DNA from: Frankiaceae bacterium
GTDB taxonomy: Bacteria > Actinomycetota > Actinomycetes > JAFAQI01
Assembly: GCA_030840525.1 (NCBI GenBank)
Contig: JAVEEI010000131.1
Coordinates: 526-64,525 of the forward strand
DNA length: 64,000 bases
Direction: 5' to 3'
The notes beneath the pieces were generated by a model. The model was not told the DNA's origin. It searched no databases and saw only the letters and a program-made list of their open reading frames with translations. Every line of letters begins with the position of its first letter. Position 1 is the stretch's first letter. A program made the position numbers and the translations under genes. Of this stretch, positions 10,560 through 63,118 are shown in pieces.

Positions 10560-13610
<3,051 letters not shown>

Positions 13611-22602: not shown

Positions 22603-22675
22603 CATCCATCGTCGCATCCGTCGCGCGTTTCGCGCGGTCGTCTGCCAGGATGGCCCGCGCGAGAGGAGGTACCCG

Positions 22676-29870: not shown

Positions 29871-31316
<1,446 letters not shown>

Positions 31317-32483: not shown

Positions 32484-32676
32484 ACGACGGCTCGGGCGCC
32501 GGGTCGCCTTCCGGCCGGCGCGCCTCGTCGACCAGCAGCACCGGGATGTCGTCGCGCACCGGGTAGGCGTAGCCGCACGACGTGCACACCAGCTCGGCGG
32601 CGTCGTCGTCGGCGCGCAGGGTCGCGCGGCAGTTCGGGCAGGCCAAGATGTCGAGCAGGGCCGGGTCGAGGTTCAC
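32479..32676 (-). CDS. Trm112-family small zinc-ribbon protein
   Basis: LDILACPNC...LVCTSCGYAYPVRDDIPVLL. 65 aa. Confidence 0.7.
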   Translation of the reverse strand: MNLDPALLDILACPNCRATLRADDDAAELVCTSCGYAYPVRDDIPVLLVDEARRPEGDPAPEPSS

Positions 32677-32691
32677 GCCCCGGGAGCCTAG

Positions 32692-42779: not shown

Positions 42780-45242
42780 TTACGCAGGAACCGCGTACGT
42801 CGTCGTCCGCTGGCGCGCCGGTCGGCCCGCGGCCGCCGCCATCGCGACGAGGTCGGCGACCTCCTTGCTCGAGCCGTGCGCGCTGCCGGCCATCCGGCTG
42901 ATGGTCTCCTCCATCAACGTGCCGCCGAGGTCGTTGACACCGCCGCGCAGCACGGTGACGCACGCGTCCGGGCCGAGCTTCACCCAGCTGCACTGGATGT
43001 TGTCGATCTGGCCGTGCAACAGGATCCGCGCCATCGCGTGCACGGCGCGGTTCTCCAGCACGGTCGGCCCCGGCCGGGCCAGCCCGGCGAGGTAGAGCGG
43101 CGCGTTGAGATGCACGAACGGCAGCGGCACGAACTCGGTGAACCCACCGGTCTCGTCCTGCAGCCGCGCGAGCAGCTTGAGGTGCGCGACCCAGTGCGCG
43201 GGCGTGTCGACGTGGCCGTACATCATCGTCGACGTCGTCGGGATGCCGAGCCGGTGCGCCGTCGTCACGACCTCGACCCACGTCGCCGCCGGCAGCTTGC
43301 CCTTCGTCAGGATCCAGCGCACGTCGTCGTCGAGGATCTCCGCCGCCGTACCGGGCAGCGAGTCGACGCCGGACTCCTTCGCCTTCGCCAGCCAGTCGGC
43401 GATCGACAGACCGGTGCGGGCCGCGCCGTTCACGACCTCCATCGGGCTGAACGCGTGCACGTGCAGCTGCGGCTGCCGCCGCTTCACTTCGGCGGCGAGG
43501 TCGAAGTACGCCGACCCCGGCAGGTCCGGGTGGATGCCGCCCTGCATGCAGACCTCGGTCGCGCCGGCCGCCGCGGCCTCGTCCGCGCGGACGCCGACCT
43601 GCTCGACCGACAGCGTGTAGGCGTCGGCATCGGTACGGCGCTGCGCGAACGCGCAGAACCGGCAGCCGGTGTAACAGACGTTGGTGAAGTTGATGTTGCG
43701 GTTGACCACGAACGTGACGTCGTCGCCGACGGCGTCGCGGCGCAGCCCGTCGGCGAGCGCGGCAAGCGCGTCGATCTCCGCGCCCGGCGCGGCGTCGAAC
43801 AACGTCAACGCGTCGCTGTCGGAGAGCGTCGACGGCGCGCGCTCGGCATGCCGCAACGCGGCCGCGAACTCCGCCCGGACGCGGTCGCTGCGCTGCCGCT
43901 TCTTTTGCTCGAGCTGCGGCACCGCGAGCGAGCCCCAGTCGCCGTACGCGGTGTCGAAGTCGGAGCGGCGGTCGGCCGAACGTCCGTCGGTGTCGATGCT
44001 GCGGTGCAGGTCGGTCCGGCCGCCGTCGGACCAGCCGCCGTCGGGCTCCTGCCAGGGCAGGCCGCGCGGCAGCATGTCGACGCGGGCGAGACCGCGATCG
44101 TCGGCGAGCGCGGCGACGTGCGGCCGCAGCCGCGGGTCCAGCCAGGGCTCGTCGAGGTACGGCGGGTGCGCGGCCAGCCGCTCGGTCAACACGAAACCCG
44201 CGGCGCCGGTGACGGCGGCGAGGTCGTCGAGGTGCGGCCACGGGCGTTCCGGGTTCACGTGGTCGGGAGTGAGTGGCGAGACGCCGCCCCAGTCGTCGAC
44301 GCCGGCCGCGAGCAGCCGCCGGCACTCGTCGAGGTCGACAAGGTTCGGCGGCGCCTGCACCCGCACGCCGGGACCGAGCAGGATCCGAGCAACCGCAACG
44401 GTCGCGACGTAGTCGTCGAGGTCGCAGTCCGGCGCCGCCTGCATCGCGGTCGCCGGCTTCGCGCGGAAGTTCTGCACGATGACTTCCTGCACGTGCCGGT
44501 ACTGCCGCGACAGCGCGCGCAGCGCGAACACCGACGCGACTCGGTCGGCGTACGTCTCGCCGATGCCGACGAGGATCCCGGTGGTGAACGCGACCGACGA
44601 GCGGCCGGCGTCTTCGATGCAGCGCAGCCGCACCGCGGGCACCTTGTCCGGGCTGCCGCGATGCGCCGCGACGTCGCCGGTCGTCTCGAGCATCAGCCCC
44701 ATCGACGGCGCGACCGGCTTGAGCCGTTGCAGCTCCTCCCACGACATGACGCCGGGGTTGAGATGCGGCAGCAGGCCGGTCTCTTCGAGCACCCGGATCG
44801 CCATCGCGCGGACGTAGTCGAGCGTCGTCGCGTACCCCGCCTCGGCCAGCCACTGCGCGGCTTGCGGCCACCGCATCTCGGGCCGGTCGCCGAGGGTGAA
44901 CAGCGCCTCCTTGCAACCGAGCACCGCGCCCCGGCGCGCGATGTCGAGCACCTCGTTCTCGGTGAGGTACGGCGCCGGCAGCCGGCCCGGTGTCGTCGCG
45001 AACGTGCAGTAGTGGCAGCGGTCGCGACACAACCGCGTCAGGGGGATGAAAACCTTGCGGCTGTAGGTGATCGTGCCCGGCCGGCCGAGCTCGGCGAGGC
45101 CGGTGTCGCGCACCCGCGCCGCGGTCGCGCACAACTCGTCGAGCGCCTCGCCGCGTGCGGACAGCAGCGTTTCGGCTTCGCTGTTGTCGAGGGTCTTGCC
45201 GGCGGCGGCGCGGGCGAGCGCACGTCGCAGCCCGCTGTCCAT
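42780..45242 (-). CDS. fbiC: FO synthase, bifunctional CofG/CofH (FbiC)
   Basis: 820 aa with two radical-SAM CxxxCxxC motifs ([10 protein letters not shown]; [10 protein letters not shown]) and a typical FbiC N-terminus. Confidence 0.95.
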
Positions 45243-45279
45243 GTCTCGACCCTACGCGGGTGCTGAAAGACTGCCGCTC

Positions 45280-46236
45280 ATGCGGATCACGGTGCTGGCC
45301 GGCGGCATCGGCGGCGCGCGCTTTCTCACCGGACTGCGCACGCTGGGCCACGACATCACGGTGATCGGCAACAACGGCGACGACGTCACGATGTACGGGC
45401 TGCGCATCTGCCCGGACCTCGACACCGTGATGTACACGCTCGGCGGCGGCATCAGCGCCGAGCGCGGCTGGGGGCGCGAGGACGAGACGTTCCGGGTGCG
45501 CGACGACATCGGCGCGTACGTCGGCGCGAGCGGCACCGACGACCTGCCGTCGTGGTTCGGTCTCGGCGACCTCGACCTCGCGACGCACCTGGTCCGGGCG
45601 CACTGGCTGGCCGAGGGGGTGCCGCTGTCGGCGGTGACGGCGCGGCTGTGCGCGCGGTGGGACCCCGGCGTACGGCTGCTCCCGTCGACCGACGACCGGG
45701 TCGAGACGCACGTGACCCTTGCCCACGGGGAACGCGTGCACTTCCAGGAGTGGTGGGTCCGGTTGCACGCGTCGGTGCCCGCGACCGCGATCGAGCTGTT
45801 CGGTGCGTCCGAGGCACGGCCCGCGCCCGGCGTCCTCGACGCGATCGCGGGCGCGGACGTCGTCGTGCTGCCGCCGAGCAACCCGGTCGTCAGCGTCGGG
45901 ACCATCCTCGCCGTACCCGGGATCCGCGACGCGGTCGTCGCGACGAGCGCGCCGGTCGTCGGGGTGTCGCCGATCGTCGGCGGCGCACCGGTCCGCGGCA
46001 TGGCCGACGCGTGCCTCGCCGCGATCGGGGTGGAGACGTCGGCGTACGCCGTCGCCCGCCACTACGGCGAGCTTCTCGACGGCTGGCTCGTCGACGAGGG
46101 CGACAAGGCGGACGCGGACCGGCTCAACGAGGAGGGCCTGCCGGCCCGCGCCGCACCGCTGCTGATGACCGACGTGGACGCGACCGCACGGATCGCGGAT
46201 GCCGCGCTGAGCCTGGCCGCGGACGTCCGGAAGTGA
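45280..46236 (+). CDS. fbiA: 2-phospho-L-lactate transferase CofD (FbiA)
   Basis: [20 protein letters not shown]-terminus and a CofD/YvcK fold. ATG at 45280, 37 bp from the divergent fbiC. Confidence 0.9.
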
Positions 46237-47276
46237 TCCGCATCTGGGGTGTCGACGGCATCCCGGAGATCACCGCCGGCGACGACCTCGCCGCCGTCAT
46301 CGCGTCGCGCAAGCCCGGCCTGCGCGACGGCGACATCGTCGTGGTCACCAGCAAGGTCGTGAGCAAGAGCGAGGGGCGGCTGGTCGCCGGCGACACCCGC
46401 GACGCGGCCATCGACGCCGAGACGGTGCGGGTGGTCGCGCGCCGCGGCGACCTGCGGATCGTCGAGACGCGGCACGGCCTGGTGCTGGCGGCGGCTGGCG
46501 TCGACGCGAGCAACGTCCCGGCCGGGACGGTCGCGCTGCTTCCGGTCGACCCGGACGCGTCCGCGGCGCGGCTGCGGGCCGGGCTGCACGACCGGCTCGG
46601 CATCGACGTCGGCGTACTCGTCACCGACACGATGGGCCGGCCGTGGCGCAACGGGCTCGTCGACGTCGCGATCGGCGCTTCGGGCGTCGTAGTCCTGGAC
46701 GACCACCGCGGCCGGGTCGACGACCACGGGCACACGCTGGAGATGACGGTCACCGCGCTCGCGGACGAGGTCGCGGCCGCGGCCGAGCTGGTGAAAGGGA
46801 AGCTCGACAAGGTGCCCGTGGCGGTCGTCCGCGGGCTGGGCCATCTCGTCGGCGGCGACTCGGCCGGACGCGCGGCCGACCTGGTCCGCCCGCCGGACGA
46901 GGACCTTTTCCGCTGGGGCGCCCGCGAGGCCGTGCAGGCGGCGCTTAACACCGCCCGTCTGCGCGCCCAAGGCACACTTGAGGGTGCGCCGGACGAAGTG
47001 GTCGATGCTGCGATCGCCGCAGTCCACTCGGATGGCGTGGTCCTCGTGCCGGTTTCGTCGGGCGACAGCCGCGTCGGCCACGTGCTCGCGTGCGTTCAGC
47101 GCGGTGAGGTGATCGACGAAGCTCAAGTACTTTCTGTCGGCAGGGTCGCCGAACGATTCGCGCTTTGGGTCGTCACCGAGGGCTGGTCGGCTGTCGTGAC
47201 GTCGTCGGCAACCGGAACAGCGCCCGCCGGGCTCGTCGCGGTGGCCACCATCCAAATGTCGAAGCTCGCTGAGTGA
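46233..47276 (+). CDS. fbiB: Coenzyme F420:L-glutamate ligase CofE (FbiB), short form
   Basis: GTGA overlap with cofD. CofE domain ([20 protein letters not shown]...[13 protein letters not shown]...[11 protein letters not shown]). It is only 347 aa, against about 448 aa for mycobacterial FbiB. Confidence 0.85.
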
Positions 47277-47368
47277 CTGCACGAGGCTGGGCGCTTGACC
47301 GATCGGCTCAGTCTTGACCGCTCTCGACGATCGGGTCGAAGGGAGCGCGACGGGCGTGACCGGAGTGT

Positions 47369-48497: not shown

Positions 48498-49418
48498 CTA
48501 GATCGCGCGGATGTCGCCGACCGGCATGCGCGGGCCGAACTTCGGCTTCTGCGCGCCGGACAGCTCCACCAGCCGGACGGCGCGCTGGCGATGCCCCGGG
48601 TACGCCGCCAGCACCTCCATCATCTCGTCGTCGTCGATGGGCCGGCCGAGCAGCGCCCAGCCGACGAGGGCCGGCACGTGGTAGTCGCCGTACGACACCT
48701 CGTCGGGGTCGCCCCAGGCGCGCTGCGCAACTTCCGCTGCCGTCCACCGCCCGACGCCGGGCACGGAACGCAACCGGCGCAGCCGCTCGTCACGAGGCAG
48801 CTCGATGCTCTCGTCGAGCCGGTGCGCGACCGCGGCCGCGCGCAGCACGGTCCGCGCCCGGCCGGGGTCGACGTTGGCGCGGTGCCACTCCCACGACGGG
48901 ATCCGCCGCCAGACCTCCGGGCCCGGGAAGACGCGCATGCCGTCCGGGGCCGGCCCGGGCGCGGGCTCGCCGTATCGGCGGACGAGGTGCCGCCAGGACC
49001 GCCGCGCCTCCTTGCCGGTGACGCGCTGCTCCAGCACGGCCGGCACCAACAGCTCGAACACCAGGCCGAGCCGGCACAGCCGCAGGTGCGGCAGCCGGCG
49101 CCACGTCTGCGCGACCAGCTCGTGCGCCGGCCGGAACCCGGTGACGTCGTCCGCGGCGCCGAGCAGGTCGGGCACCCGGGCGAGCATCCACTCGCGGCCC
49201 GGGCCCCACGCCCGCGCGTCGACCTCGCGGTCGCGTACGGCGAGGCGCAGGGTGACCGGCCCGTCGGGGGTGCGCGCGGTGCGCCACAGCGCCCCGTCCG
49301 GCCCGACCTGCTGCGTCGGGTCGCCCGGGCCGCGCTGCAAGGCGCCGAGCGTCAGGGTCAGCGAGACGGGAGCGGGCGCGGTCCACGCCGTCGCCACCTC
49401 GTCCGCGCACATCCCCAC
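48498..49418 (-). CDS. DNA-3-methyladenine glycosylase II-like (HhH-GPD family, AlkA-type)
   Basis: HhH-GPD segment (LRSVPGVGRWTAAEVAQRAWGDPDEVSYGDYHV) with the catalytic Asp context. Confidence 0.7.
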   Translation of the reverse strand: MGMCADEVATAWTAPAPVSLTLTLGALQRGPGDPTQQVGPDGALWRTARTPDGPVTLRLAVRDREVDARAWGPGREWMLARVPDLLGAADDVTGFRPAHELVAQTWRRLPHLRLCRLGLVFELLVPAVLEQRVTGKEARRSWRHLVRRYGEPAPGPAPDGMRVFPGPEVWRRIPSWEWHRANVDPGRARTVLRAAAVAHRLDESIELPRDERLRRLRSVPGVGRWTAAEVAQRAWGDPDEVSYGDYHVPALVGWALLGRPIDDDEMMEVLAAYPGHRQRAVRLVELSGAQKPKFGPRMPVGDIRAI

Positions 49419-50355: not shown

Positions 50356-51339
50356 TCAGCCGAGCGAGGCGCCGTCGGCGACGACTGCGTCGGCGAGGAC
50401 GCAGCCGGGCCCGACCACGGCGCCCGCGCCGATCGCGGAGCGGGTCACGACCGCGCCCGCGCCGATGCGTACGCCGTGCTGCACGACGGACGCCGCGACG
50501 ACGGCGCCGGCTCCGACCTCGACGCCCGGGCCCAGCGCCGTACCGCCGACCACCGACGCGGACGGGTCGACCGTCGCCGTCGGGTCGACGAGCACGTCCG
50601 TCCCGTTCGGGCGGTACGCCGGCGACGCGACGACGCCGGTGACGATGTCGACGCCGGCCTGCACGTACGCCGCCGGCGTGCCGACGTCGAGCCAGTAGGA
50701 GTCGTCGACGACGCCGACGACGGGCGCGCCGCCGGCGAGCAGCGCCGGGAACGTCTCGCGCTCGACCGACACGACCGTGCCGGCGGGGATCGCGTCGACC
50801 ACCGCGCGGTCGAGGACGTAACAGCCGGCGTTGATCTGCCGCGACACCGGGTTCGGCATCTTCTCGTGGAACGCGAGCACCCGCCCGGCGGCGTCGGTCG
50901 GCACGCACCCGTACGCGCGCGCGTCCTCGACGGTGACGAGGTGCAGCGTCGCGACCGCGCCGGTCGACTCGTGCGTCGCGACCTGCGCGGCGAGGTCGTG
51001 GCCGGAGAGCACGTCGCCGTTCTGTACGACGACCGGGTCGTCGCCGCCGTCCAGCGCGGCGGCCGCGTTGCGAATCGCGCCACCGGTGCCGAGCGGCTCC
51101 GTCTCGACGACGTACGACAGCCGCAGGCCGAGACTCGCGCCGTCGCCGAAGTGCGCGGCGAAGACCTCGGCGCGGTAGCTGGTCGCGAGGACGACGTGGT
51201 CGAAGCCGGCGGCCGCGAGCCGGGCGAGCTGGTGGGTGACGAACGGGACGCCGGCCACCGGCAGCATCGGCTTCGGCGTCGTCAGCGTCAGCGGGCGGAG
51301 CCGGGTGCCCTGCCCGCCGACGAGCAGGATGGCCTGCAC
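50356..51339 (-). CDS. Mannose-1-phosphate guanylyltransferase (nucleotidyltransferase + LbH)
   Basis: MQAILLVGGQGTRLRPLT...GGAIRNAA nucleotidyltransferase motifs and C-terminal left-handed β-helix hexapeptide repeats. Confidence 0.85.
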   Translation of the reverse strand: MQAILLVGGQGTRLRPLTLTTPKPMLPVAGVPFVTHQLARLAAAGFDHVVLATSYRAEVFAAHFGDGASLGLRLSYVVETEPLGTGGAIRNAAAALDGGDDPVVVQNGDVLSGHDLAAQVATHESTGAVATLHLVTVEDARAYGCVPTDAAGRVLAFHEKMPNPVSRQINAGCYVLDRAVVDAIPAGTVVSVERETFPALLAGGAPVVGVVDDSYWLDVGTPAAYVQAGVDIVTGVVASPAYRPNGTDVLVDPTATVDPSASVVGGTALGPGVEVGAGAVVAASVVQHGVRIGAGAVVTRSAIGAGAVVGPGCVLADAVVADGASLG

Positions 51340-51352: not shown

Positions 51353-52480
51353 TCAGCCCTGTTGGGCCGCGCGCTGGTAGGACGCCATGTGCGCCTCCGC
51401 GCTCGCCGCCCAGGTGAACTCGCGGGCCCGGGCCAGCGCGGCCTGACCGAGCGACGCCCGGCGCGCGCCGTCGTCGAGCAGCGCGGTCAGCGCGGTCGCG
51501 ATGTCGTCGGCGCCCGGCTCGGTGTAGGCGACCGCGTCGCCGCCGACCTCGGGCAGCGACAGCCGGTGCGTCGTGAGTACCGCGGCGCCGCACGCCATCG
51601 CCTCCAGCACCGGCAGGCCGAAACCCTCGCCATGACTGGGAAACGAGACGACCGTCGCGCCGCCGAGGTAGCCGGGCAGGTCGGCGAAGCGCAGGTATCC
51701 GGGGCGCACGACCCGCAGGTGCGACGGCACCTCGGCGATGGCCGCGTCGACCTCGTCGTCCCACCCGCTGCCGCCGGCGAGGACGAGGGCCGGCGGGTCG
51801 TCGCGCCAGTGCACGGCCTGGACCCAGCCGCGGATCAGGTTGGGCACGTTCTTGCGCGGCTCGAGCACGCCGAGGAACGCGATGTACGCGCCGCGCAGGC
51901 CGAGCCGCGCCGCGACCCGCGCCTTCTCCGCGTCGGTCGGCACGTGGAACACCTCGGGGTCGACGCCGTGGTAGGCGACGTCGACCGAGGTGGGGTCGGC
52001 GTCGAGGACGCGCACGAGCTCGTCGCGGGTCGCCTTGCTCGGCACGATTACCCGGGCGGCGCGGCGCAGCGCCGTACGGGTCGCGGACCGGAAGAACGTG
52101 CCCTTCACCGAGGTGTGCTGCTCGGGCTGGGTGAAGAACGTGACGTCGTGGATCGTGACGACGACGGGGCGGCCGACCCGCAGCGGCATCGTGTAGTGCG
52201 GCGAGTGGACGACCTCGGCGCCGAGCTGTTGCGCGACTAGCGGCAGGCCGGTCTGCTCCCAGGCGAGCCGGGCCGGGCGGTGCGCGATCGCGGCCGGGCC
52301 GGGCACGACCTCGACCAGGTCGGACATGCGGCTGTAGCGCTCGGCGTCGGCCCGCTGGCACACGACGGCGAGGTCGGCGCCGGCACGCGCGAGTGCGGGG
52401 ATGAGGCCGTCGACGTAACGTCCGACCCCGCCGCGGTCGGCGGGCACTGCCGTCGCGTCGACCAGCACACGGGGGGCCAC
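51353..52480 (-). CDS. Family 4 glycosyltransferase (GT-B; likely mannosyltransferase)
   Basis: GT4 C-terminal EX7E-type region (FPSHGEGFGLPVLEAMACGAAV). 375 aa with a GTG start. Confidence 0.85.
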   Translation of the reverse strand: MAPRVLVDATAVPADRGGVGRYVDGLIPALARAGADLAVVCQRADAERYSRMSDLVEVVPGPAAIAHRPARLAWEQTGLPLVAQQLGAEVVHSPHYTMPLRVGRPVVVTIHDVTFFTQPEQHTSVKGTFFRSATRTALRRAARVIVPSKATRDELVRVLDADPTSVDVAYHGVDPEVFHVPTDAEKARVAARLGLRGAYIAFLGVLEPRKNVPNLIRGWVQAVHWRDDPPALVLAGGSGWDDEVDAAIAEVPSHLRVVRPGYLRFADLPGYLGGATVVSFPSHGEGFGLPVLEAMACGAAVLTTHRLSLPEVGGDAVAYTEPGADDIATALTALLDDGARRASLGQAALARAREFTWAASAEAHMASYQRAAQQG

Positions 52481-52553: not shown

Positions 52554-55253
52554 TCAGCCCGACGACCAGCCGACGATGTCGACGACGAGACTCAGCGCGG
52601 CGGACGAGCCGTTGCGCACGGAGACCTTCGCGCCGCTGCCGAGCGGGACGAGGATCGTCGACCCGACCGGCGTCGTACCGCGAAGCTGCAGGTTGCCGGT
52701 GCCCGGCGCGGTGGTCCCCGCGGGCCAGGCGATGACGTACCCGTGCGCGGCGCCGGTCGCGGTCAGCGCGAGCAGCACGCTGTGCGCCGAAGCCGGTACG
52801 CCGACCGTCGCCGGGAGGGCCAGCGTCGTCGTGCCGTTGGCCGGCACCGTGACGGCGGCGAGCCGCCGCGGCGGCGCTACCAACGTCGTCGCCCCGCTGG
52901 CCGGCGACGCGGCGACCGGCACGAACCAGCCGAGCAGGTCCGCGGTCACCGCCGTCGGGTAGTGCGGCGACAGGCTCACCGACCCGGTCGAGTCGAGCGG
53001 CACGACCGTCGTCACGGTGCGCGACCCGCCCGGGCCGTACAGGTCGTACGCGCCGGTCCGCGTCCCGCCGGACGGCCAGGCCTGCAGGTACGACGACGTG
53101 GTCGGGTTGACGACGGTCAGCTGCAGCACGGCGGCCGAGGCGCCGGACGGCACGCCGTCGCGGCCGACGACCGGGAACGTCGCGGTGCCGCTGCCGGCGA
53201 TCGTCGTACCGGCCCGGCCGCCGAACAACCGGTACGCCGCGACGGCCTTGAGTGCGCTGCCCGCGGTCGAGTCCGGGCCGTAGTAGCCCTCGGTCATGAC
53301 GATCAGCCGGGTGGTGCCGGTGCTGTTGTTGGACACGTCGACGAGACCGCTCGTGCCGGCGTCGACGTAGACGGTCGCGCTGACCCGCTGGCCGGCCGCC
53401 CACGACAGCTGCGCGGTCGGCGGCTTCTTGCCGCCGTGCGGCCAGACGGTGAAGCTGCCGGCCGCGGTCGAGGTGAAGCTGACGACCTCGAGGGCGACCG
53501 CCTTGACGCCGCTGGAAGGCATCCCGCCGACCCCGGTCACTGCGACCGAGCGGGTCGCGCGCGCGGCGATGCCGCCGGTGCCGGTGTCGAGGATCACCGC
53601 GTGCCGCAACGGGTGGAACAGCAGCCGCGCCGACGGAGTCTGCGGCGGGGTGGTCGCGGCCGCGCCGGCACCCGCGGAGTTGTGCGCGACGATCGAGAAC
53701 ACGTACGTCGTGTCGTTGGTCAGCCCGGTGACCACCGCGCTGCGCGCGCTGGGCGCCAGCGTCACCGTCGGGATCGCGGGGCTCGCCGTGATCGTGTAGC
53801 TCGTGACCCCGCCGCCGCCGTCGCTCGACGGCGCGGCCCATTTCAACGAGACCTGCGCGTCGCCCGCGGTCGCGGTCACGCTCTGCGGCGCGGTCGGCTT
53901 CGTCACGACGACGGTGAACCACTCGCTCATCAGGCCGAGCGCGGACCGGAACGACGTGCCGGTCGTGTCTACCGAGCCGCGGCTGCCGGTCAGCGTCATG
54001 GTCAGCACCCGGCCGCCCCACTGCTCGCCGACGGTGTGGCCGTTCTGGTCGGTGCCGGACAGCCGCTCGCGCGAGTCGATCGTCAGCGAGCGGAACGAGC
54101 CGATCGCCGGGTACGCCGCTTGCAGCTGCGCCGCCGTCACGGTGTCGGACCAGCTATGGCTGTTCCAGCTCTCGGTCGGCCGGCCGTCCCACGCGTCCGG
54201 CCGCGACGGCAGGTAGGTCTGCCCGCCGTCCAATTCGAAGCCGCCGTTCGAGGCGGAGTACTGCGCGAAGATCGCGCGCCCCGACGAGTCGACCATGATC
54301 TGGCCCGCGGTCGCGTCGACCGCCGCGTCGCTCGTCGACGTCTTCGCGCCGCTGCTCGTCGTCCACGGGCAGTCGCTCGCGGCCGTCAGCTCGGCGCTGT
54401 AGCCGCCGTACGCCTGGTCGAAGGTGTTGTCGACGATCGTCGCGAAACTGCTGCGCGGGTTGGCGATCCGCCACGACGCGTAGCTGCGCGCGGCGACCGC
54501 CTGCGCGGCCAGGCCGTCGAGCCGCTTGGTGCCGCCGACGGTCGGGACCCACGAACACGGCATCTCCGACGGCACGACGCCGTACAGGTAGTGCTCGAGG
54601 GTGACGAGGTTCACCGTCATCCCGCTGCTGCTGCTCACCTTGTCGAACTGGATCGAGTCGCGGTAGGCGACCCGGGTGCCGCTCGGCCGGACGAGGGTGA
54701 CGACGTGCGCCCCTGCGGTGAACCGCAGCCACGTGCCCGACCACGTCGTCGTCGTGCCACCGGCCGGGGCTACGTCGGTCCACCCGCTGGACGTGTGGCC
54801 CTGCACCCGCAAGGTGCCGTCAGACGCGAGGGCGCCGCGCCACAGGTCGTAGGTCTTGCCGCCGACAGAGGCCGGCAGCACGAGGGTGTGACTCGCGCCG
54901 TCGAGGACGGTGAGACCGGTCACGGGGGCGACCGTCGTCGGCCCGGACCCGGCCGCGCTCAACTGCACCGCGATCGTGCCGCTCTTCGTCGCGAGCGCCG
55001 GTGCCGCGTAGTACCACGCGACGATCTGCTGCCACGTCTTGCCGGCTTCGGCGCCGCCGTACGCGCCCCACTGCGACAGGCCGTGGCCGTGACCGAACCC
55101 GTGGCCGGCGATGTGCAGTACGCCGTCGGCCGGCCGGTTGTAGGTCTCGGTCGCCGCGGCCGCCGGTGGCCCGAAGGCCACGAGCGCGGTGAGCAACGCG
55201 GCCGCGGTCGTCACCGCGGCGGTGACGGCACCGGTGCGTCGTCGTGGCCGCAT
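52554..55253 (-). CDS. SpoIID/LytB-domain protein with fibronectin-III and multiple β-rich repeat domains (about 900 aa, secreted)
   Basis: ATG (MRPRRRTGAVTAAVTTAAALLTALVAFG signal/TM). SpoIID-like segment (GAYGGAEAGKTWQQIVAWYY...DQAYGGYSAE...QYSASNGGF) and an FN3-like segment (PTAPQSVTATAGDAQVSLKWAAPSSDGGGGVTSYTIT). Confidence 0.8.
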   Translation of the reverse strand: MRPRRRTGAVTAAVTTAAALLTALVAFGPPAAAATETYNRPADGVLHIAGHGFGHGHGLSQWGAYGGAEAGKTWQQIVAWYYAAPALATKSGTIAVQLSAAGSGPTTVAPVTGLTVLDGASHTLVLPASVGGKTYDLWRGALASDGTLRVQGHTSSGWTDVAPAGGTTTTWSGTWLRFTAGAHVVTLVRPSGTRVAYRDSIQFDKVSSSSGMTVNLVTLEHYLYGVVPSEMPCSWVPTVGGTKRLDGLAAQAVAARSYASWRIANPRSSFATIVDNTFDQAYGGYSAELTAASDCPWTTSSGAKTSTSDAAVDATAGQIMVDSSGRAIFAQYSASNGGFELDGGQTYLPSRPDAWDGRPTESWNSHSWSDTVTAAQLQAAYPAIGSFRSLTIDSRERLSGTDQNGHTVGEQWGGRVLTMTLTGSRGSVDTTGTSFRSALGLMSEWFTVVVTKPTAPQSVTATAGDAQVSLKWAAPSSDGGGGVTSYTITASPAIPTVTLAPSARSAVVTGLTNDTTYVFSIVAHNSAGAGAAATTPPQTPSARLLFHPLRHAVILDTGTGGIAARATRSVAVTGVGGMPSSGVKAVALEVVSFTSTAAGSFTVWPHGGKKPPTAQLSWAAGQRVSATVYVDAGTSGLVDVSNNSTGTTRLIVMTEGYYGPDSTAGSALKAVAAYRLFGGRAGTTIAGSGTATFPVVGRDGVPSGASAAVLQLTVVNPTTSSYLQAWPSGGTRTGAYDLYGPGGSRTVTTVVPLDSTGSVSLSPHYPTAVTADLLGWFVPVAASPASGATTLVAPPRRLAAVTVPANGTTTLALPATVGVPASAHSVLLALTATGAAHGYVIAWPAGTTAPGTGNLQLRGTTPVGSTILVPLGSGAKVSVRNGSSAALSLVVDIVGWSSG

Positions 55254-55282
55254 CGACTCACCGTAACCGCGCGCCGCGCGGA

Positions 55283-58051
55283 TCACCGGGTCGACACGGA
55301 GACGGTACGGGAAGCTCGACCCGCCGCCACACACCAGAAGTCGCTCGGGTGGTCGACCATCCGCTTGAGCGACCAGCGGCCGAGCGAGTTGACGGTCAGC
55401 GTGCCGATCAGGGTGCGGACGGTGGTGCCGTGGAACCGTTGGTACACCGCGACTTTCCAGCCGGGCACGCCCGTCCCTGCGATGGTCACGACCGTTCGTC
55501 GTAGCACCGACGCCGGTGCGCTGAGTGTCGGCGCGACGAGCACTTGCTTCGTCGCGGTCTGGCCGCTCGGTGTCTGCACGGCCCACTCGATGTCGCGGCG
55601 CAGCGCCACCGCGAGGGTGAACGCGCCGGTGCGCGGGTCGGCCGTCGCCGTCGCCGTCCACGCGAACGTCTTCGCCCCTACGGCGCGGGTGTAGAGCTTC
55701 ACCCGGTCGCCGGGGACGGCCTTGCCGGTGTAGCCGACCGGGACGCCGTAGTGGCCGCTGGCCGGCGCGGTCGCGGTCGGAGCGAACGTCGGCAGCACGG
55801 TCGTCGTACCGGTCGCGTCCGCGCCGTAGCCGGTCGACACCCGCCACGGCAACGACGACGACGTCGCCACCGCCGGCAGCGTGACTTTCGCCGTGAACGC
55901 GCCGGTCGGCGCCGCGGTCACCATGGCCGCGACCGCGAACGACGACGCGCCGGGCGGCTTGGTGAGGACGCGTACGGCGACCGGCGCATGGCCGGCGTTG
56001 CCGGTGACTGTGAGGGTCCGGGCCGAGTAGCCGGTCGACGGCGCCGACGCGGCCGGCGGGTCGACCGGGTAGACGGTGAGCGGTGTCGACGAGAGCCCGC
56101 GGGCGTCGGTGACGGCGACCGACACCGGGATCGAAGGTGTCGTCACCGCCGACCACGACCCGTTGGCGGCGACCGCGGCGGGCAGCGTCGCTTGCGTCGT
56201 GCCGGTCGACAGCGAGGTCGTGGTCAGGGTGACCTGCGGACCGGCCGACGGCAGCGCCGTACCGGCCAGCCGCAACGCCGTTGCCTTCGTCAGGAACACC
56301 GTGTTGCCGGTCGCGACCGGCGACGTGACGACCGGCGCGACCCTGGTGCTGCGCGACGGCGTCGAGTAGCCGTTCACGGCCGCGGACCACGTGTAGTCCT
56401 CGTCGGCGGTGAACGTCGCGGTCCACGTCGGCGCGGTCGTGTGGATGAGCTGCGCGGGCAGCGCAGTGCCGGCGCGGGTCAGCGACAGCGTGACGTCACT
56501 CCCGGTCGGCGCGGTGCCGGTGAGCTTCACCTGCTGGCCGTAGCCGGCCACCGCCGGACCGGTCACGGTGACCGGCGGGGTGACGGTGACCTTGGTCGAG
56601 TAGGGCAGCGCGCTGCTCGACGACGTCGTGCTCGACAGCAGCACGGTGTAGGTGCCCGGCGGGACCGGAGCGCCGAGGTCGTCGGTGCCGTCCCACGTAC
56701 CCGCGATCGGCGCGGTCGGCGTCGCGCTGCCGGTGAGGCTGCGGACGACGTTGCCGGTCGAGTTCGTGACGGTGAGCGTCCACGCCTGCGACCGGAGCAC
56801 GCCGGAGTGCACGGAGACGGCCTGCCCGGAGAGCATGCGGATCGACGTCGGGCTGACCGTCGGCGCGACGAGACCGGCGCCGATCAACGACTTCACCGCG
56901 GACCGGATCGTCGGAAGCTGCGCGTACGCCGCGCTGCCCGGGCAGGTCGTCGTGTCGGCGTCGCGGTGACCCGACACGACCTTGAACGTGACGGTCGAGC
57001 CGGCGGCGTACCGCGACCCGCCGAACGATCCCGCGAGCATCGTGGTCGTCGCCGTCGGGTCGCGGTAGTACGCGCCGAGCCGCCAGGCGAACAGCTTCTC
57101 CGTCGCGCTGACCATCGCGGCCGGCGGCGCCGTGCTGGTGAAGTTGCCGATGAGCGACGTGCCGAACGAGTCGGTGTTGAAGCCGCCGGTGTGGGCGCCG
57201 ATGACCGGCTTCGTGATGCCGCCGTACCGGCCTTCCCAGATGCGGCCGAACCGGTCGACGAGGAAGTTGTAGCCGATGTCGCACCAGCCGTTGGACTCGA
57301 CGTGGTACGCGTAGATCGAGCGGATGATCGAGGGCACCGCGCTGCTGGGGTAGCCGTTGGCACCGTCGGTGTGGTGGATGAAGCCCATCTTGACCGTCGA
57401 GCCGTAGTCCGGGGTGCCGCAGCCGGAGTTGTACGTGCGCAGCCGCTCGTCCGCGCCCCACTGCGCGCGGGTGTAGACGGTCGGCTGCGACATCGCGGCG
57501 GCCGCGGTCGACATCGCGGTCGCGGGGTGGGCGGCCGCGTCGGCCGGGCTGCTGCCGCCGTCGACGAGTACGACGGACAGGCCCGCGGGTGCGGTCGCCG
57601 GCCGGTCGCCGCGCGCCGAGACGACGCGGGCCTCGACGCCGTCCGCGGACCCGACCCACAGCGGGTCGGTCGCGGTGACGTGCCGGTGCGCGGCGGCGCG
57701 CGCGTCGCGGCTACCGTCGTCCGGGCCGCCGTCGGGCAGCGTCAGCGGGTTCCAGCCCGACCACGTGCCGTGCTGGCGGACCCGGATCTGGACCTGCGCG
57801 CCGGCGGCGAGGCTGCCGCTGCGCCAGGTCGCGCCGACGAGACCGAACTTCTGCGTGGCCCGCCGGCCGGTGTCCGCGACGACGCCGCGCGTGGCCGGCA
57901 GCGCCGTGACCGCGATCATCGACGTGGCCGGCGCAACGGGATGCGCGTCGACGCTCGGCGAGCCGACGACCGGCGCGCCGACGACGACGGCGGTGGCGGC
58001 AAGGACGAGACCGGCAACGGCGGGCACCGAGGCGGCGGACAAGCGGGGCAC
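55283..58051 (-). CDS. N-acetylmuramoyl-L-alanine amidase (Amidase_2/PGRP domain) with a long Ig-like repeat tail (922 aa, secreted)
   Basis: Signal peptide. Amidase_2 core (GFIHHTDGANGY...YAYHVESNGWCDIGYNFLVDRFGRIWEGRYGG...GAHTGGFN...SGHRDADTTTCPG), then about 550 aa of Thr/Ala/Val-rich β repeats. Confidence 0.8.
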   Translation of the reverse strand: MPRLSAASVPAVAGLVLAATAVVVGAPVVGSPSVDAHPVAPATSMIAVTALPATRGVVADTGRRATQKFGLVGATWRSGSLAAGAQVQIRVRQHGTWSGWNPLTLPDGGPDDGSRDARAAAHRHVTATDPLWVGSADGVEARVVSARGDRPATAPAGLSVVLVDGGSSPADAAAHPATAMSTAAAAMSQPTVYTRAQWGADERLRTYNSGCGTPDYGSTVKMGFIHHTDGANGYPSSAVPSIIRSIYAYHVESNGWCDIGYNFLVDRFGRIWEGRYGGITKPVIGAHTGGFNTDSFGTSLIGNFTSTAPPAAMVSATEKLFAWRLGAYYRDPTATTTMLAGSFGGSRYAAGSTVTFKVVSGHRDADTTTCPGSAAYAQLPTIRSAVKSLIGAGLVAPTVSPTSIRMLSGQAVSVHSGVLRSQAWTLTVTNSTGNVVRSLTGSATPTAPIAGTWDGTDDLGAPVPPGTYTVLLSSTTSSSSALPYSTKVTVTPPVTVTGPAVAGYGQQVKLTGTAPTGSDVTLSLTRAGTALPAQLIHTTAPTWTATFTADEDYTWSAAVNGYSTPSRSTRVAPVVTSPVATGNTVFLTKATALRLAGTALPSAGPQVTLTTTSLSTGTTQATLPAAVAANGSWSAVTTPSIPVSVAVTDARGLSSTPLTVYPVDPPAASAPSTGYSARTLTVTGNAGHAPVAVRVLTKPPGASSFAVAAMVTAAPTGAFTAKVTLPAVATSSSLPWRVSTGYGADATGTTTVLPTFAPTATAPASGHYGVPVGYTGKAVPGDRVKLYTRAVGAKTFAWTATATADPRTGAFTLAVALRRDIEWAVQTPSGQTATKQVLVAPTLSAPASVLRRTVVTIAGTGVPGWKVAVYQRFHGTTVRTLIGTLTVNSLGRWSLKRMVDHPSDFWCVAAGRASRTVSVSTR

Positions 58052-58263
58052 GTGAACATCTCCAGCGGGCAGCGGCGGCGGCTTTCGGGCGCGGGTCGTC
58101 GTGAGAGGAATCGGCTCTACCCTGCCGTCACTTCAGTCACATGGCCACCGTCGCGGCCAAACTCACAGGATCCGGGCACGCCGGTCAGCCAGGACTTCCC
58201 CGGGCGCCACCCTGCTCGCCTCGCGCGCGGGTTCCGGCCTGCCCGCGCGGGTACACGGACGCG

Positions 58264-59130
58264 GTGACGACCCCGTACCCGGACGAGCAAGGCGAGGAGA
58301 CCCCAGGCGCCGGCGGCCTCAACGAGCAAGCGGTGGAGGACACGCTCCAGCGCACGGTCGAGGAAGGCCGGCGCCGGATGCACCGCAAGTTCCTGCCGTT
58401 GCTGTCGACCGGCCTGGTCGGCGGGATCGACGTCGGCACCGGCGTGATGGCGATGCTCGTCGTCGAGACGCGCACCGGCGACAAGCTGCTCGCCGGGCTG
58501 GCGTTCTCCATCGGCTTCGTCGCGCTCACGCTCGCCCGCAGCGAGTTGTTCACCGAGGACTTCCTGGTGCCGGTGAGCGCGGTCGTCGCGCGGCAGTCGC
58601 GGTTCCGCTCGCTGCTGCGGCTCTGGGGCGCGACCGCGTTGATGAACCTCGTCGGCGGTTGGATCCTCACGAAGCTCGTCATCGACGGGTTCCCGGATGT
58701 GCGCAAGACCGCCGTCGCGGCGGGGCAGCACTACATCGGCCTCGGCCTCGGCTGGCGCGCGTTCGCGCTGGCGCTGCTCGGTGGCGCGGCCATCACGTTG
58801 ATGACGTGGATGCAGCACGCGACCGAGTCCACGGGCGTCAAGCTGGTCCCGGCCGTGACGACCGGCTTCCTGCTCGCCGGGCTGCAGCTCAACCACGCGA
58901 TCGTCAACTCACTGCTCATCTTCGCGGGCCTGCACACCGGCCATACGTCGTACGGCTATCTCGACTGGGCCGCGACGGCGGGCTGGGCCGCGCTCGGCAA
59001 CATGGTCGGCGGCGTCGCGCTGGTCACGTTGCTGCGGATGCTGCAGGTGCCGCACAAGGTGCGCGAGCACGCGGAGAACCCGGCCCCGTGTGTCGAGGAT
59101 CGCAAGCAGTCGCAGACGATTGACGCGTGA
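58264..59130 (+). CDS. Formate/nitrite transporter family (FNT) channel
   Basis: Six-TM FNT pattern (FLPLLSTGLVGGIDVGTG; LARSELFTEDFL; LQLNHAIVNSLL). GTG at 58264; an upstream GTG at 58141 is possible. Confidence 0.7.
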   Translation: MTTPYPDEQGEETPGAGGLNEQAVEDTLQRTVEEGRRRMHRKFLPLLSTGLVGGIDVGTGVMAMLVVETRTGDKLLAGLAFSIGFVALTLARSELFTEDFLVPVSAVVARQSRFRSLLRLWGATALMNLVGGWILTKLVIDGFPDVRKTAVAAGQHYIGLGLGWRAFALALLGGAAITLMTWMQHATESTGVKLVPAVTTGFLLAGLQLNHAIVNSLLIFAGLHTGHTSYGYLDWAATAGWAALGNMVGGVALVTLLRMLQVPHKVREHAENPAPCVEDRKQSQTIDA

Positions 59131-59789: not shown

Positions 59790-59798
59790 CGCGTCGGC

Positions 59799-60473
59799 TC
59801 AGGCAGCGCCGAGCACTCCGACCGACATGACGGCCGGCTCGTCCGGCACCTCCAGCGGCGGCTCCGTCGCGGCGCGGACGTCGTCGACACTGACTCCCGG
59901 CGCGACCTCGCGCAGCACGAGCCCCGCGGAGGTCACGTCGATGACGGCAAGGTCGCTGACGATGCGCTGCACGACGCCGCGGCCGGTCAACGGCAGCGAG
60001 CACTCGCGCACGATTTTCGGGCTGCCGTCCTTGGCGACGTGCTCCATCAGCACGATGACTTTCTTCGCGCCGTGCACGAGATCCATTGCCCCGCCCATGC
60101 CTTTGATCATCTTGCCGGGGATGGTCCAGTTGGCGAGGTCGCCGGCGACCGACACCTGCATCGCGCCGAGGATCGCGGCGTCGACGTGCCCGCCGCGGAT
60201 CATCGCGAACGACGTCGCCGAGTCGAAGAACGCGGATCCCTTCAACACCGTCACCGTCTCCTTGCCGGCGTTGATGAGGTCCGGGTCCTCGTCGCCGTCG
60301 TACGGGTACGGGCCGACGCCGAGGATGCCGTTCTCGCTCTGCAGTACGACGGAGACGCCGGCCGGGAGGTAGTTGGGCACCAGCGTCGGCAGGCCGATCC
60401 CGAGGTTGACGTACGCGCCGTCGGTGAGCTCGAGCGCGGCACGCGCCGCCATCTGCTCGCGGGTCAACGTCAT
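59799..60473 (-). CDS. scoB: 3-oxoacid CoA-transferase subunit B
   Basis: [14 protein letters not shown]...ENG (catalytic Glu context)...GMGGAMDLV. Its ATG overlaps the scoA stop. Confidence 0.9.
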
Positions 60474-61249
60474 GCCGCACCTCCGGTCACGCGCTCCGGG
60501 CGCGGCCGCACCGTGCGCCGCTCGATCCGCTTCTCCTCGTCGGGCACGTGCACGACGCGTTGCACGAACACGCCCGGCAGGTGGACCGCGTCGGGGTTGA
60601 TCGCGCCGGGCTCGACGATCCGCTCGACTTGCGCGATGGTCACCCGGCCGGCCATCGCGCACAGCGGGTTGAAGTTGCGCGCGCTCTCGTGGAACACGAG
60701 GTTGCCGTGCCGGTCGCCGACCATCGCGTGCACGAGCGCGTAGTCGGTCGTGATCGCCTCTTCCAACACGTAGTCGCGGCCGCCGAACGAGCGCACCTCT
60801 TTCGGCGGGCTCGCGACCGCAGTCGAGCCGTCGGCGCCGTACCGCCAGGGCAGGCCGCCCTCGCTGATCTGCGTGCCGACACCGGTCGCGGTGAAGAACG
60901 CGGCGATGCCGGACCCGCCCGCGCGCAGCCGCTCGGCCAGCGTCCCCTGCGGCGTCAGCTCGAGCTCGAGCTCACCGGCGAGGTACTGCCGGGCGAACTC
61001 CTTGTTCTCGCCGACGTACGACGACGTCATCCGCGCGATGCGTTTCGCGTACAGCAGGATGCCGAGGCCCCACTCGTCGACGCCGCAGTTGTTCGACACG
61101 ACCGAGAGGTTGTCGACACCGGCGTCGTACAGGGCCTGGATGAGAACGGACGGGATGCCGCAGAGGCCGAAGCCGCCGACGGCGAGCGAGGCGCCGGACG
61201 GGATGTCGGCGACGGCGTCAGCGGCGCTGCTGACAGTCTTGTCGATCAC
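60470..61249 (-). CDS. scoA: 3-oxoacid CoA-transferase subunit A
   Basis: [32 protein letters not shown] is the typical subunit-A N-terminus. Confidence 0.9.
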
Positions 61250-61265: not shown

Positions 61266-61931
61266 GTGACGGGGACCGGCGACACGGATCCGGTGCTGGC
61301 CGCGCAGCTCCGCTACTACCGCGAGCGCGCGGCCGAGTACGACGCGACCAGCTACGGCGACGAGCGCGCGTTCGTCGGCCCGGTCGCGCGGACGATCGAA
61401 CCGCTCGGCGACGTGCTCGAGCTGGCCTGCGGCACCGGCGTCTGGACCCGCGAGCTGGCACCGCGGGCGGCGTCGTACCTCGCCGTCGACGCGGCCCCGG
61501 AGATGCTCGCCTTCGCCGCCGCGAACCTCGACGGCCCCGACAGCACCGCCGTCGAGCTGCGCTGCGCCGACGTGTTCGACCTGGGTCTAGGCCGCGAGTT
61601 CGACACCGTGTTCTTCGCCGCCTGGATATCGCACGTGCCGCCGGATCGGTTCGCCGAGTTCTGGGCGTCGGTCGCGTCCGTGCTCCGGCCCGGCGGCCGC
61701 GCCGTCTTCCTCGACGAGCTACCCGAGCGCGCCCGGAACGAGACCGAGCTCGCCGGCTCGATGGCGACGCGAACGCTCGCCGACGGGTCGCGGCACCGGA
61801 TCGTCAAGGTGTTCTATGACCCGGACGATCTGGTGGCGCGGCTGCGCGAGCTCGGCTGGGAGACCACGGTGACGCGGACGCCCAACGACTGGTTCGTCGC
61901 GACCGCGCGGCCGGCTCAGCGCCAGGGGTAG
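61266..61931 (+). CDS. Class I SAM-dependent methyltransferase
   Basis: SAM-binding motif I (VLELACGTGVWT) and the post-I acidic residue (LAVDAAPEM). Confidence 0.7.
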   Translation: MTGTGDTDPVLAAQLRYYRERAAEYDATSYGDERAFVGPVARTIEPLGDVLELACGTGVWTRELAPRAASYLAVDAAPEMLAFAAANLDGPDSTAVELRCADVFDLGLGREFDTVFFAAWISHVPPDRFAEFWASVASVLRPGGRAVFLDELPERARNETELAGSMATRTLADGSRHRIVKVFYDPDDLVARLRELGWETTVTRTPNDWFVATARPAQRQG

Positions 61932-63037
61932 GCGCCGAGCGCGGCCCACTGCGGCGTGCGCGTCTCGCTGTAGACGTAGAGGCTCGCGCCGATCGCGCCG
62001 GCCCGCCTGCCGGCGTCGAGGAACCGCCAGATCTCGCGGCCCGACGGCATCCCGCGGCGGCCGCCGTCGGGGCCCATGTCGTAGGACTGCCCGACGAGGT
62101 GCACCGGCCGGAGCTTCGCCAGCGCGCGCACCGATTGCACGGCGAGGGTGCCCGGCTCGCTGCACGACCAGTAGACCATCGGCGCGAACACGTCGACGTA
62201 CGGCGCTTCGGCGCGGTACGGGTACGTCTTCAGCTGGTACGGCGTGGGCCGCATCACGGTCGCGACGACCGGCAGGTTGCCGGCCGCGCGGCGGACCAGC
62301 GACAGGTAGAGCGCGACCCGGCGCGGCGCGTTGAAGGTGCCTTCGTTGATGGTCTCGATGTCGGGGCTGAAGCCGTCGATGTGCTGGCCGGCGAACGTGC
62401 CGGTGATGGCGGCGACTGCGCGCTTCGCGTCGGCGACCGGGTCGGAGAGCGCCGGGAAGTCCCAGGCGACGACCGACAGGCCGGCCGCGTGCGCCAGCGG
62501 CAGCAACGGCGTGAGGAACTTCGCGCCGTACCAGCCCTGCTTGGTCCCGCCGGTGCGCACCCATAGCTGGGTCAGCCCGGCGCCCTTCGCCTGCCGGACG
62601 ACCTTTGCCGCGTCGAGCGTGCTGTCCGGCCACGTGGTCAGCCACATGCCCTTGCCGCTGACCGCGGCCAGGTCGACGTGGCGGGTGCGGGGTACGGCGA
62701 CCGGTGCCGGCAGCTTCGCGGTCGGTACGGCGGGCGTCGGCGGGTGGAACGGCGGGCCCGGCGGCCGGGGGCGCGGCGGGCAGCCCGTCGGGTACGCCGG
62801 CGGCGCGGGGATCGCGTACAGCGGGCCGGTCGCTCTCGCCGGCTTCGGCTTGGGTTTGGGCTTCGGCGTCGTCCGGGCCGGCGCAGGCGCGGTCGGCGTA
62901 GGGGCTGGTGGGAGCACGGGTGCGGTGTGCGCGGCGGGACGCGGCGCGTCATGCCCGGGCTGCAGCGTCGCCGCCACCCCGACGCCGCTTGCGAACACCC
63001 CGACGGCAGCGACCGCCACCCACCGCTCCAGTCGCAT
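61916..63037 (-). CDS. Secreted/membrane-anchored protein with a Pro-rich (PKPKPKPKP) linker and a possible glycoside-hydrolase-like TIM-barrel domain
   Basis: ATG (MRLERWVAVAAVGVFASG) signal anchor, a proline-rich linker and a 250-aa C-terminal domain. Its C-terminal 16 nt overlap the convergent methyltransferase gene. Confidence 0.45.
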   Translation of the reverse strand: MRLERWVAVAAVGVFASGVGVAATLQPGHDAPRPAAHTAPVLPPAPTPTAPAPARTTPKPKPKPKPARATGPLYAIPAPPAYPTGCPPRPRPPGPPFHPPTPAVPTAKLPAPVAVPRTRHVDLAAVSGKGMWLTTWPDSTLDAAKVVRQAKGAGLTQLWVRTGGTKQGWYGAKFLTPLLPLAHAAGLSVVAWDFPALSDPVADAKRAVAAITGTFAGQHIDGFSPDIETINEGTFNAPRRVALYLSLVRRAAGNLPVVATVMRPTPYQLKTYPYRAEAPYVDVFAPMVYWSCSEPGTLAVQSVRALAKLRPVHLVGQSYDMGPDGGRRGMPSGREIWRFLDAGRRAGAIGASLYVYSETRTPQWAALGAYPWR

Positions 63038-63118
63038 GACCCGATTGTGCGCGCCCCACCCCGTCGAGTGTGACGAAATACGTCTTTTCAGGCCGTCAGA
63101 GGACGAGTTTCGTCGCAC

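Follow-up and report, generated by a model that had tools for sequence, protein, structure and literature searches.

A Frankiaceae gene pair predicted to encode an Ami3-type amidase and a circularly permuted SpoIID/LytB-type lytic transglycosylase

In Bacillus and Clostridioides the DMP system of endospore engulfment combines an amidase, SpoIIP, with a lytic transglycosylase, SpoIID, both of which are membrane-anchored. SpoIID does not act on peptidoglycan before SpoIIP has removed the peptides, and in C. difficile both its activity and sporulation depend on the glutamate E101 (PMC6221140). Here we report on a gene pair of similar composition in DNA from a metagenome-assembled genome of a Frankiaceae bacterium (NCBI GenBank assembly GCA_030840525.1, contig JAVEEI010000131.1, positions 526 to 64,525 of the forward strand), a stretch of 64,000 nucleotides with a G+C content of ~73%, in the following called the window. 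On its minus strand an amidase gene (58051..55283) is followed by a gene for a SpoIID/LytB-domain protein (55253..52554). The pair is an actinobacterial variant of the known partnership of an amidase with a SpoIID/LytB protein; new are the Ami3-type partner, the permutation of the SpoIID domain and the accessory modules. We consider it fairly probable, though by no means certain, that the two products are secreted, wall-associated peptidoglycan hydrolases that act in sequence.

Like SpoIIP-SpoIID, the pair consists of an amidase and a protein with the fold of the lytic transglycosylase SpoIID and a conserved catalytic glutamate, the activity being predicted in the present case, and the expected logic is alike, namely stripping of the peptides before the cut by SpoIID. 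The amidase, however, is of the Amidase_2 type with the fold of the peptidoglycan recognition proteins (PGRP) rather than a SpoIIP, as a first-pass annotation of the window had rightly pointed out, and the SpoIID domain is permuted and scores far under the cutoff of the sporulation equivalog spore_II_D. Both proteins are secreted and multidomain rather than membrane-anchored, and the organism does not form endospores. In this respect the pair can be likened to LytB and LytC, the secreted, wall-bound components of the vegetative autolytic system encoded by lytABC in B. subtilis, of which LytB stimulates the amidase LytC. There, too, a SpoIID/LytB-domain gene lies beside the gene of a wall amidase, an arrangement that for the pair described here is conserved across genomes. 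LytC, however, belongs to Amidase_3 whereas the partner in the window belongs to Amidase_2, the wall-binding repeats are of another type, and the gene order is reversed, lytB preceding lytC in B. subtilis. Moreover, LytB has been described as a modifier, whereas the SpoIID protein of the window keeps the catalytic glutamate.

The closest relative of the amidase with a name is Ami3 (Rv3811) of mycobacteria, a secreted envelope enzyme with the same architecture of Rv3811_N and Amidase_2 domains. An Ami3-type relative from Rhodococcus (L055) ends in LGFP repeats, whereas the window amidase, in which Pfam found no LGFP repeats, has a FlgD immunoglobulin (Ig)-like domain and five other repeats instead. 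In mycobacteria Ami3 is controlled by HtrA-LppZ and by Pmt (PMC6538288). A SpoIID-domain enzyme is also found in Waddlia, a non-sporulating member of the Chlamydiales, where SpoIID acts on denuded glycan at the division septum with the amidase AmiA alongside. Waddlia differs in being Gram-negative with a minimal peptidoglycan and in having an amidase of another family, and neither adjacency nor fusion of the two genes is described in that paper. The first-pass annotation had called the system in the window uncharacterised. For the actinobacterial pair this agrees with the literature searched, in which we found no characterisation of it; for the underlying partnership it goes too far, given the precedents of SpoIIP-SpoIID and LytB-LytC and the homologue Ami3.

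The amidase gene is an open reading frame (ORF) for 922 amino acids in which Pfam recognizes Amidase_2 and FlgD_ig. Read directly from the translation, the protein starts with a signal-like N-terminus (residues 1-36, 57944..58051, minus strand, as are all features of the pair; ...SPSVDA|HPVAP), in which a hydrophobic stretch is followed by VDA|HP; the mature part of its homologues begins at the motif PHPVAP, as in the window protein. There follows an Rv3811_N domain (residues ~45-175, approximately 57527..57919, the boundaries being estimated), which is known from the precomputed domains of P0121, an identical protein carrying PF27503 (Rv3811_N), PF01510 and PF13860. This domain identifies the window protein as an Ami3/Rv3811-type amidase. 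Our local Pfam scan, which contained no model of PF27503, was silent on the N-terminal domain. The catalytic Amidase_2 domain of PGRP/T7-lysozyme fold (PF01510; residues 218-372, 56936..57400) scores 56.1 bits against a cutoff of 26, and sequence matches in the PDB include T7 lysozyme as well as animal PGRPs, the latter with E values down to 2e-17.

When the catalytic domains of 118 homologues were aligned, the residues H226, H227, Y261, H362, T368 and C370 proved invariant; the codons of the three predicted zinc ligands lie at 57374-57376 (H226), 56966-56968 (H362) and 56942-56944 (C370). The motifs IHHT and HRD...TxCPG align with PGRP3. BLASTP against T7 lysozyme covered the central part, where Y261 aligns with Y46, and put the first histidine out of register, so that the alignments with PGRPs and the conservation of the motifs were used instead; the T7 lysozyme counterparts of the zinc ligands and of the catalytic tyrosine we take to be H17, Y46, H122 and C130. 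Catalytic PGRPs keep the cysteine ligand, whereas non-catalytic ones have a serine in its place. Against this background of PGRPs and T7 lysozyme, a cysteine rather than a serine at position 370 indicates an active zinc amidase, and with its His-His-Cys triad intact the protein looks catalytically competent. In Ami3 of M. smegmatis the same three residues with identical numbers, H226, H362 and C370, were mutated, and toxicity was thereby abolished (PMC6538288). The identity of the numbers indicates that the N-terminal ~370 amino acids of the two proteins are co-linear, without net insertions or deletions, despite the phylogenetic distance. The threonines T122, T130 and T138, which are O-mannosylated in M. 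smegmatis Ami3, have no conserved counterparts of the same number in the window amidase.

Downstream of the catalytic domain the amidase continues with the FlgD Ig-like domain (PF13860, E 1.2e-10; residues 422-477, 56621..56788) and ends with five tandem repeats of ~87 amino acids (residues 486-575, 576-660, 661-745, 746-830 and 831-922; 55286..56596), which were delimited with self-built profiles, the profile of each repeat matching the other repeats with i-E values down to 2.5e-12. The repeat region makes up the C-terminal 437 amino acids and is rich in Thr, Ala and Val, with 18% Thr and 16% Ala. Pfam had no match to the C-terminal 442 amino acids nor to the N-terminal domain even at E up to 5; some homologues bear Big_6 or CarboxypepD_reg domains. 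From their sequence the five repeats are probably Ig-like.

The second gene is an ORF for 899 amino acids with matches to Pfam SpoIID and fn3 and to TIGR02669. Its product begins, again by direct reading, with a signal-like N-terminus, a hydrophobic stretch followed by AAA|ATE, and has the three-dimensional fold of SpoIID. Pfam SpoIID (PF08486) matches residues 212-321 with 63.7 bits (cutoff 23), and TIGR02669 (SpoIID_LytB) scores 124.7 bits (cutoff 83.3), whereas TIGR02870, the equivalog spore_II_D, scores 80.3 bits, far under its cutoff of 234.75. The predicted catalytic glutamate E230 (in VVPSEMP; codon 54564..54566) aligns with E101 of C. difficile SpoIID (5txu), the residue that is numbered E88 in B. 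subtilis, and is invariant in alignments of 14 and of 49 sequences. With this glutamate intact, the SpoIID domain, too, looks catalytically competent, judged from the residues that are conserved.

What sets the domain (residues 34-448, 53910..55154) apart is the order of its parts, which had escaped the first-pass annotation. The segment GHGFGHGHGLSQWGA...WYY (residues 42-89, 54987..55130), of the pattern GHGxGxSQWGA...YY, directly follows the signal peptide; its counterparts in known structures are residues 273-319 of 4rwr and 306-346 of 5txu, i.e., the end of the domain in canonical SpoIID. Correspondingly, residues 45-83 match positions 226-264 of the 270 positions of the model and the remainder of the domain matches positions 2-216. 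The SpoIID domain is thus circularly permuted relative to that of Bacillus and Clostridium and to the models TIGR02669 and TIGR02870. The G, H, S, Q, G and A columns of the segment are invariant in the homologue alignments, and the permuted order was found in all eight of the other actinobacterial homologues that were read. In the literature searched, the coverage of which was incomplete, we found no report of a permutation of SpoIID. There are also clade-specific insertions next to the active site (residues 232-300 and ~395-410, ~54300-54560), which the window protein shares with its close relatives: one of 8 amino acids after EMP, one of ~16 amino acids (LTAASDCPWTTSSGAKTS) and one of ~11 amino acids (LSGTDQNG...). 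The protein has only two cysteines (in EMPCSW and SDCPW); both are situated at or inside the first two of these insertions and could therefore be joined by a disulfide.

C-terminal to the permuted domain there is a fibronectin type III (FN3) domain (residues 455-533, 53655..53891; Pfam fn3, E 1.4e-11), which in the PDB matches FN3 domains of titin, and then one compact unit of three tandem repeats of ~118 amino acids (residues 537-899, 52557..53645). Structure prediction modelled these last 363 amino acids as three all-beta jelly-roll repeats with a predicted local distance difference test (pLDDT) score of 94.7 and a predicted template modelling (pTM) score of 0.93. No Pfam family covers the unit. 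The fold closest to its repeats is the tip domain of a prey-recognition fibre of Bdellovibrio. A homologue search with this C-terminal module, which used a word-based prefilter and retrieved few matches, found it in other genomes on S1 peptidase, CHAP, M10, Calx-beta and ThuA-type proteins (P0242-P0255), and the occurrence on other secreted proteins fits a portable targeting module. From its predicted fold it is a probable carbohydrate or cell-wall targeting module.

These results modify the picture that the first-pass annotation had given of the non-catalytic parts, which it had described as Ig- or FN3-like repeats in both proteins. This holds for the FN3 domain of the SpoIID protein and probably for the repeats of the amidase; the last 363 amino acids of the SpoIID protein are of the jelly-roll type instead. 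The size of the SpoIID protein, which like that of the amidase had been regarded as unusual, is not, since 500-900 amino acids are ordinary for actinobacterial SpoIID/LytB proteins. The idea of an envelope-spanning degradosome finds no support: neither protein contains a membrane anchor, a lipobox or a sortase signal, and the accessory domains have the look of modules for binding or spacing.

How often the two genes are found together was determined in a survey of reference genomes with 79 SpoIID loci, each from a different actinobacterial species (62 of the loci having 3 kb or more of sequence upstream), in which ORFs were scanned with hidden Markov models and the matches confirmed with Pfam. 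In 11 of the 79 loci an Rv3811-type amidase is directly adjacent to SpoIID or fused with it. The amidase gene lies upstream of SpoIID in the same direction in six loci (L019, L027, L028, L040, L067, L070), is divergent from it in four (L047 from Gordonia; L055, L059 and L065 from Rhodococcus) and is fused to it in one (L038). Among the 60 upstream neighbours of SpoIID that could be called, the Pfam family encountered most often is Amidase_2, and no other amidase family, Amidase_3 included, appears in the list of their 25 most frequent families. Conversely, SpoIID was present in 22 of 80 metagenomic loci retrieved with the amidase. Where these extended at least 1.5 kb downstream, 18 of 41 carried SpoIID, 15 of them immediately downstream. 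At least 15 pairs of close SpoIID and amidase homologues, down to ~50% identity, lie on a common contig, and in L081 the gene order is that of the window over 11 genes. Two architectures of fusion proteins were found, namely amidase-FlgD_ig-SpoIID-fn3-triple repeat (P0047, P0049, P0053, P0060) and amidase-SpoIID-FG-GAP (P0102, P0105, P0108). The probability of chance adjacency was estimated to be <1%, a rough figure that assumes a few such amidases per 5-Mb genome. In a rough neighbour-joining tree the amidase-linked SpoIIDs are scattered and form no single clade. The association, for which the first-pass annotation had asked whether it recurs in other genomes, is therefore real, and the pair is widespread in Actinomycetota, but facultative: the partner-less majority of the loci indicates that neither enzyme strictly requires the other.

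In the four divergent loci of mycolate actinobacteria (L055, L059, L065 and L047) the amidase and the SpoIID protein both end in LGFP repeats. In Rhodococcus and Gordonia the two proteins thus have a wall-binding module in common although they are encoded by separate genes.

In the window the two genes have a G+C content at third codon positions (GC3) of 0.946 (amidase) and 0.959 (SpoIID), above 0.9 in each block of 100 codons, as compared with ~0.65 in the plus-strand ORFs that overlap the pair, which identifies the minus-strand frames as the true coding frames. The amidase gene starts with GTG preceded by GGAG, the same start as in the NCBI annotation of P0121 (100% identical), and stops with TGA. 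The ATG of the SpoIID gene follows 29 nucleotides further on; alternatively, a GTG at 55286, which overlaps the amidase stop as GTGA, has been called as start by JGI (P0001, 910 amino acids). After 73 nucleotides, with the strong Shine-Dalgarno sequence GGGAGGGAG before its start, comes the gene of a family 4 glycosyltransferase (GT4; 52480..51353, minus strand; Pfam Glyco_transf_4 and Glycos_transf_1), and 13 nucleotides after its stop starts that of a ManC-like NTP transferase of the GDP-mannose pyrophosphorylase type (51339..50356, minus strand; Pfam NTP_transferase and hexapeptide). Because the junctions are tight (GTGA overlap or 29, 73 and 13 nucleotides), amidase, SpoIID, GT4 and manC probably form a four-gene operon with the pair in promoter-proximal position. 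Its promoter region is presumed to be the intergenic region 58052..58264 between the amidase gene and a divergently oriented formate/nitrite transporter gene, which is also the upstream neighbour in L081. Consensus scans found no promoter (no sigma-70 consensus) and no terminator on the coding strand, a single terminator-like site on the non-coding strand being within chance expectation, and a scan of the whole window with Rfam gathering thresholds gave no match and hence no regulatory RNA. The tandem arrangement had already been seen in the first-pass annotation, which gave 900 amino acids and 30 nucleotides where we count 899 and 29; its family assignments (confirmed with Pfam and TIGR02669) and the catalytic residues on which it made the enzymatic nature of the pair depend have stood up, and both N-termini read as the signal peptides that it saw in them. 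The position downstream of manC and the glycosyltransferase has to be reversed, as in the direction of transcription the pair is upstream of both.

The order amidase-SpoIID-(GT4)-ManC recurs in L027, L040, L080 and L081, an NTP_transferase gene following the pair or the fusion in all four and GT4 following the pair in L040 and L081. In all loci inspected, pair or fusion is flanked by CoA-transferase genes on one side and by manC or genes for wall glycopolymers on the other; next to the fusions the latter include LCP genes (L080) and teichoic-acid genes (L082). The window as a whole is a conserved envelope and regulatory region of actinobacteria, with genes for SecA (10560-13610), LpqB (18663-20435), an MtrB-like kinase (20347-22617), SahH (29871-31316), a PGI-like protein (31340-32809), PMM (32692-34044), fused FbiC (42780-45242), DUF3105, ManC and a GT2 protein of 1071 amino acids. 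It is presumably syntenic with Rv3240c-Rv3264c of M. tuberculosis. This conserved envelope setting favours housekeeping wall turnover or remodelling over endospore engulfment as the process served by the pair.

Some further observations on the region may be recorded. The long syntenic block spans 10560-45242. A gene for a SpoIIM-family membrane protein (27953-28990, minus strand; PF01944, E 1.9e-41) is located ~24 kb from the SpoIID gene and adjoined by RDD-family (28956-29870, plus strand) and DUF58 (26652-27947, plus strand) genes, so that the window holds homologues of the "D" and the "M" of DMP plus an amidase. A tight link of SpoIIM with the pair was rejected, there being no SpoIIM-like ORF in the flanks of 159 related SpoIID/amidase loci. 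In the 1071-residue protein (36827-40042, minus strand) the GT2 domain is confined to residues 18-241, and the remaining ~800 residues have no Pfam match. High-GC3 ORFs without a Pfam match (E<=0.001) are present on the minus strand at 45252-46001, 46062-47282, 48498-49418, 59790-60480 and 61916-63118 and on the plus strand at 40516-41895; for 48498-49418, L081 has a counterpart that lies, as a conserved neighbour, beside DUF3105. An origin of the pair from a prophage or an endolysin was also rejected, as no phage genes are nearby; in a tblastn search of 50,697 phage records the SpoIID part had no match and the amidase part had distant matches to endolysin domains only.

The sequence of events that we favour would be the following. 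The Ami3/Rv3811-type zinc amidase would strip the stem peptides from N-acetylmuramic acid, and the circularly permuted SpoIID/LytB-type lytic transglycosylase would next cut the denuded glycan strand. Both enzymes would be tethered to the wall by their non-catalytic modules, the amidase by the FlgD-Ig domain and the five Ig-like repeats and the SpoIID protein by FN3 and the triple jelly-roll head. Co-transcription with GT4 and ManC inside a conserved envelope locus would place them in housekeeping wall turnover or remodelling. We prefer two enzymes acting one after the other because SpoIID depends on the prior action of SpoIIP, because both active sites are intact and because fusions of the two occur. 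Several points weigh against this proposal. The activities of the pair are predicted from sequence, the operon from the spacing of its genes, and the wall binding of the accessory modules from resemblance of folds. For mycobacterial Ami3 no SpoIID partner has been reported. In 68 of the 79 SpoIID/LytB loci and in over half of the amidase loci the partner is not nearby, and the tree from which the distribution of the association was read has no support values. Finally, the adjacency of manC could be plain synteny, manC being found at this locus in actinobacteria generally.

Alternatively, the SpoIID protein might mainly serve to activate or target the amidase and, itself non-catalytic or weakly catalytic, would then not be a second enzyme of a sequential pathway. 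LytB, which has a SpoIID domain and is encoded beside LytC, stimulates LytC in just this way, a catalytically dead SpoIID of B. subtilis was reported to stimulate SpoIIP, and fusions and adjacency would fit a regulatory partnership equally well. The effect of inactive SpoIID on SpoIIP was, however, not reproduced with the C. difficile proteins, and the invariance of E230 and of GHGxGxSQWGA throughout the family argues for retained catalysis; we therefore regard such a role as unlikely, with the proviso that stimulation and sequential action are not mutually exclusive and may coexist. If the two were independent autolysins that merely are neighbours in a conserved envelope locus and do not interact, one would understand why most SpoIID loci are without an amidase and why the region with SecA, MtrB, LpqB, PMM, FbiC and ManC is so strongly syntenic across Actinomycetota. 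But the association is seen in three geometries (co-directional, divergent and fused), in differing contexts and in lineages that are as far apart as Acidimicrobiales, Rhodococcus/Gordonia, Geodermatophilaceae and Intrasporangiaceae. Without selection for proximity it is also difficult to account for two different architectures of fusion, and we regard independence as distinctly unlikely. More improbable still, in our opinion, is a role in development (sporangium, spore septum) or in the lysis of other bacteria instead of housekeeping turnover. Frankiaceae form sporangia, the jelly-roll repeats are most like the fibre tip with which Bdellovibrio recognizes its prey, and the same module is found on secreted proteases and CHAP proteins. 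The pair is, however, also present in Rhodococcus and Gordonia, which do not sporulate, it is situated in a housekeeping envelope locus with apparent co-transcription with manC, the SpoIID part is without phage relatives, and neither an immunity gene nor a toxin-secretion gene nor the context of a mobile element was seen. That both proteins are surface adhesins which have lost catalysis could be read from the repeat and binding modules, which make up over half of each; since every catalytic residue tested is present and invariant, there is hardly any reason to believe it.

Sequential action of the two enzymes can be extended to the more speculative proposal that actinobacteria own a dedicated two-step module of Ami3 and permuted SpoIID, encoded by two genes or one fused gene and guided by the jelly-roll head, a pseudo-trimer within a single chain of a kind not described before, and that this is a module whose abundance or activity would be coupled to O-mannosylation via GT4 and ManC, in parallel to Pmt and Ami3 of mycobacteria. 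The link to mannosylation, which is suggestive only, was drawn from the co-transcription with GT4 and ManC, from the Thr-rich sequences and from the stabilisation of the toxic Ami3 by Pmt in mycobacteria (PMC6538288). We consider the extended proposal doubtful and would not give it more than a small chance.

The peptidoglycan hydrolases of Actinomycetota are poorly understood beyond RipA, the Rpf proteins and Ami1, and Ami3, whose role is unclear, is known chiefly for its toxicity. If the sequential action proposed here is true, Ami3-type amidases would gain a partner and a rationale, namely to supply denuded glycan to a SpoIID-type cutter, and the natural fusion proteins would be ready constructs for processive degradation by stripping and cutting. 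As the circular permutation demonstrates, the parts of the SpoIID fold can be re-ordered, and this accounts for the only partial coverage of the actinobacterial SpoIID proteins by domain models. The triple jelly-roll is a candidate for a new domain that binds the wall or glycans and is common to several secreted hydrolases. Current concepts would not be overturned by these findings; rather, a known mechanism would be extended to a new phylum and to a new combination of enzymes.

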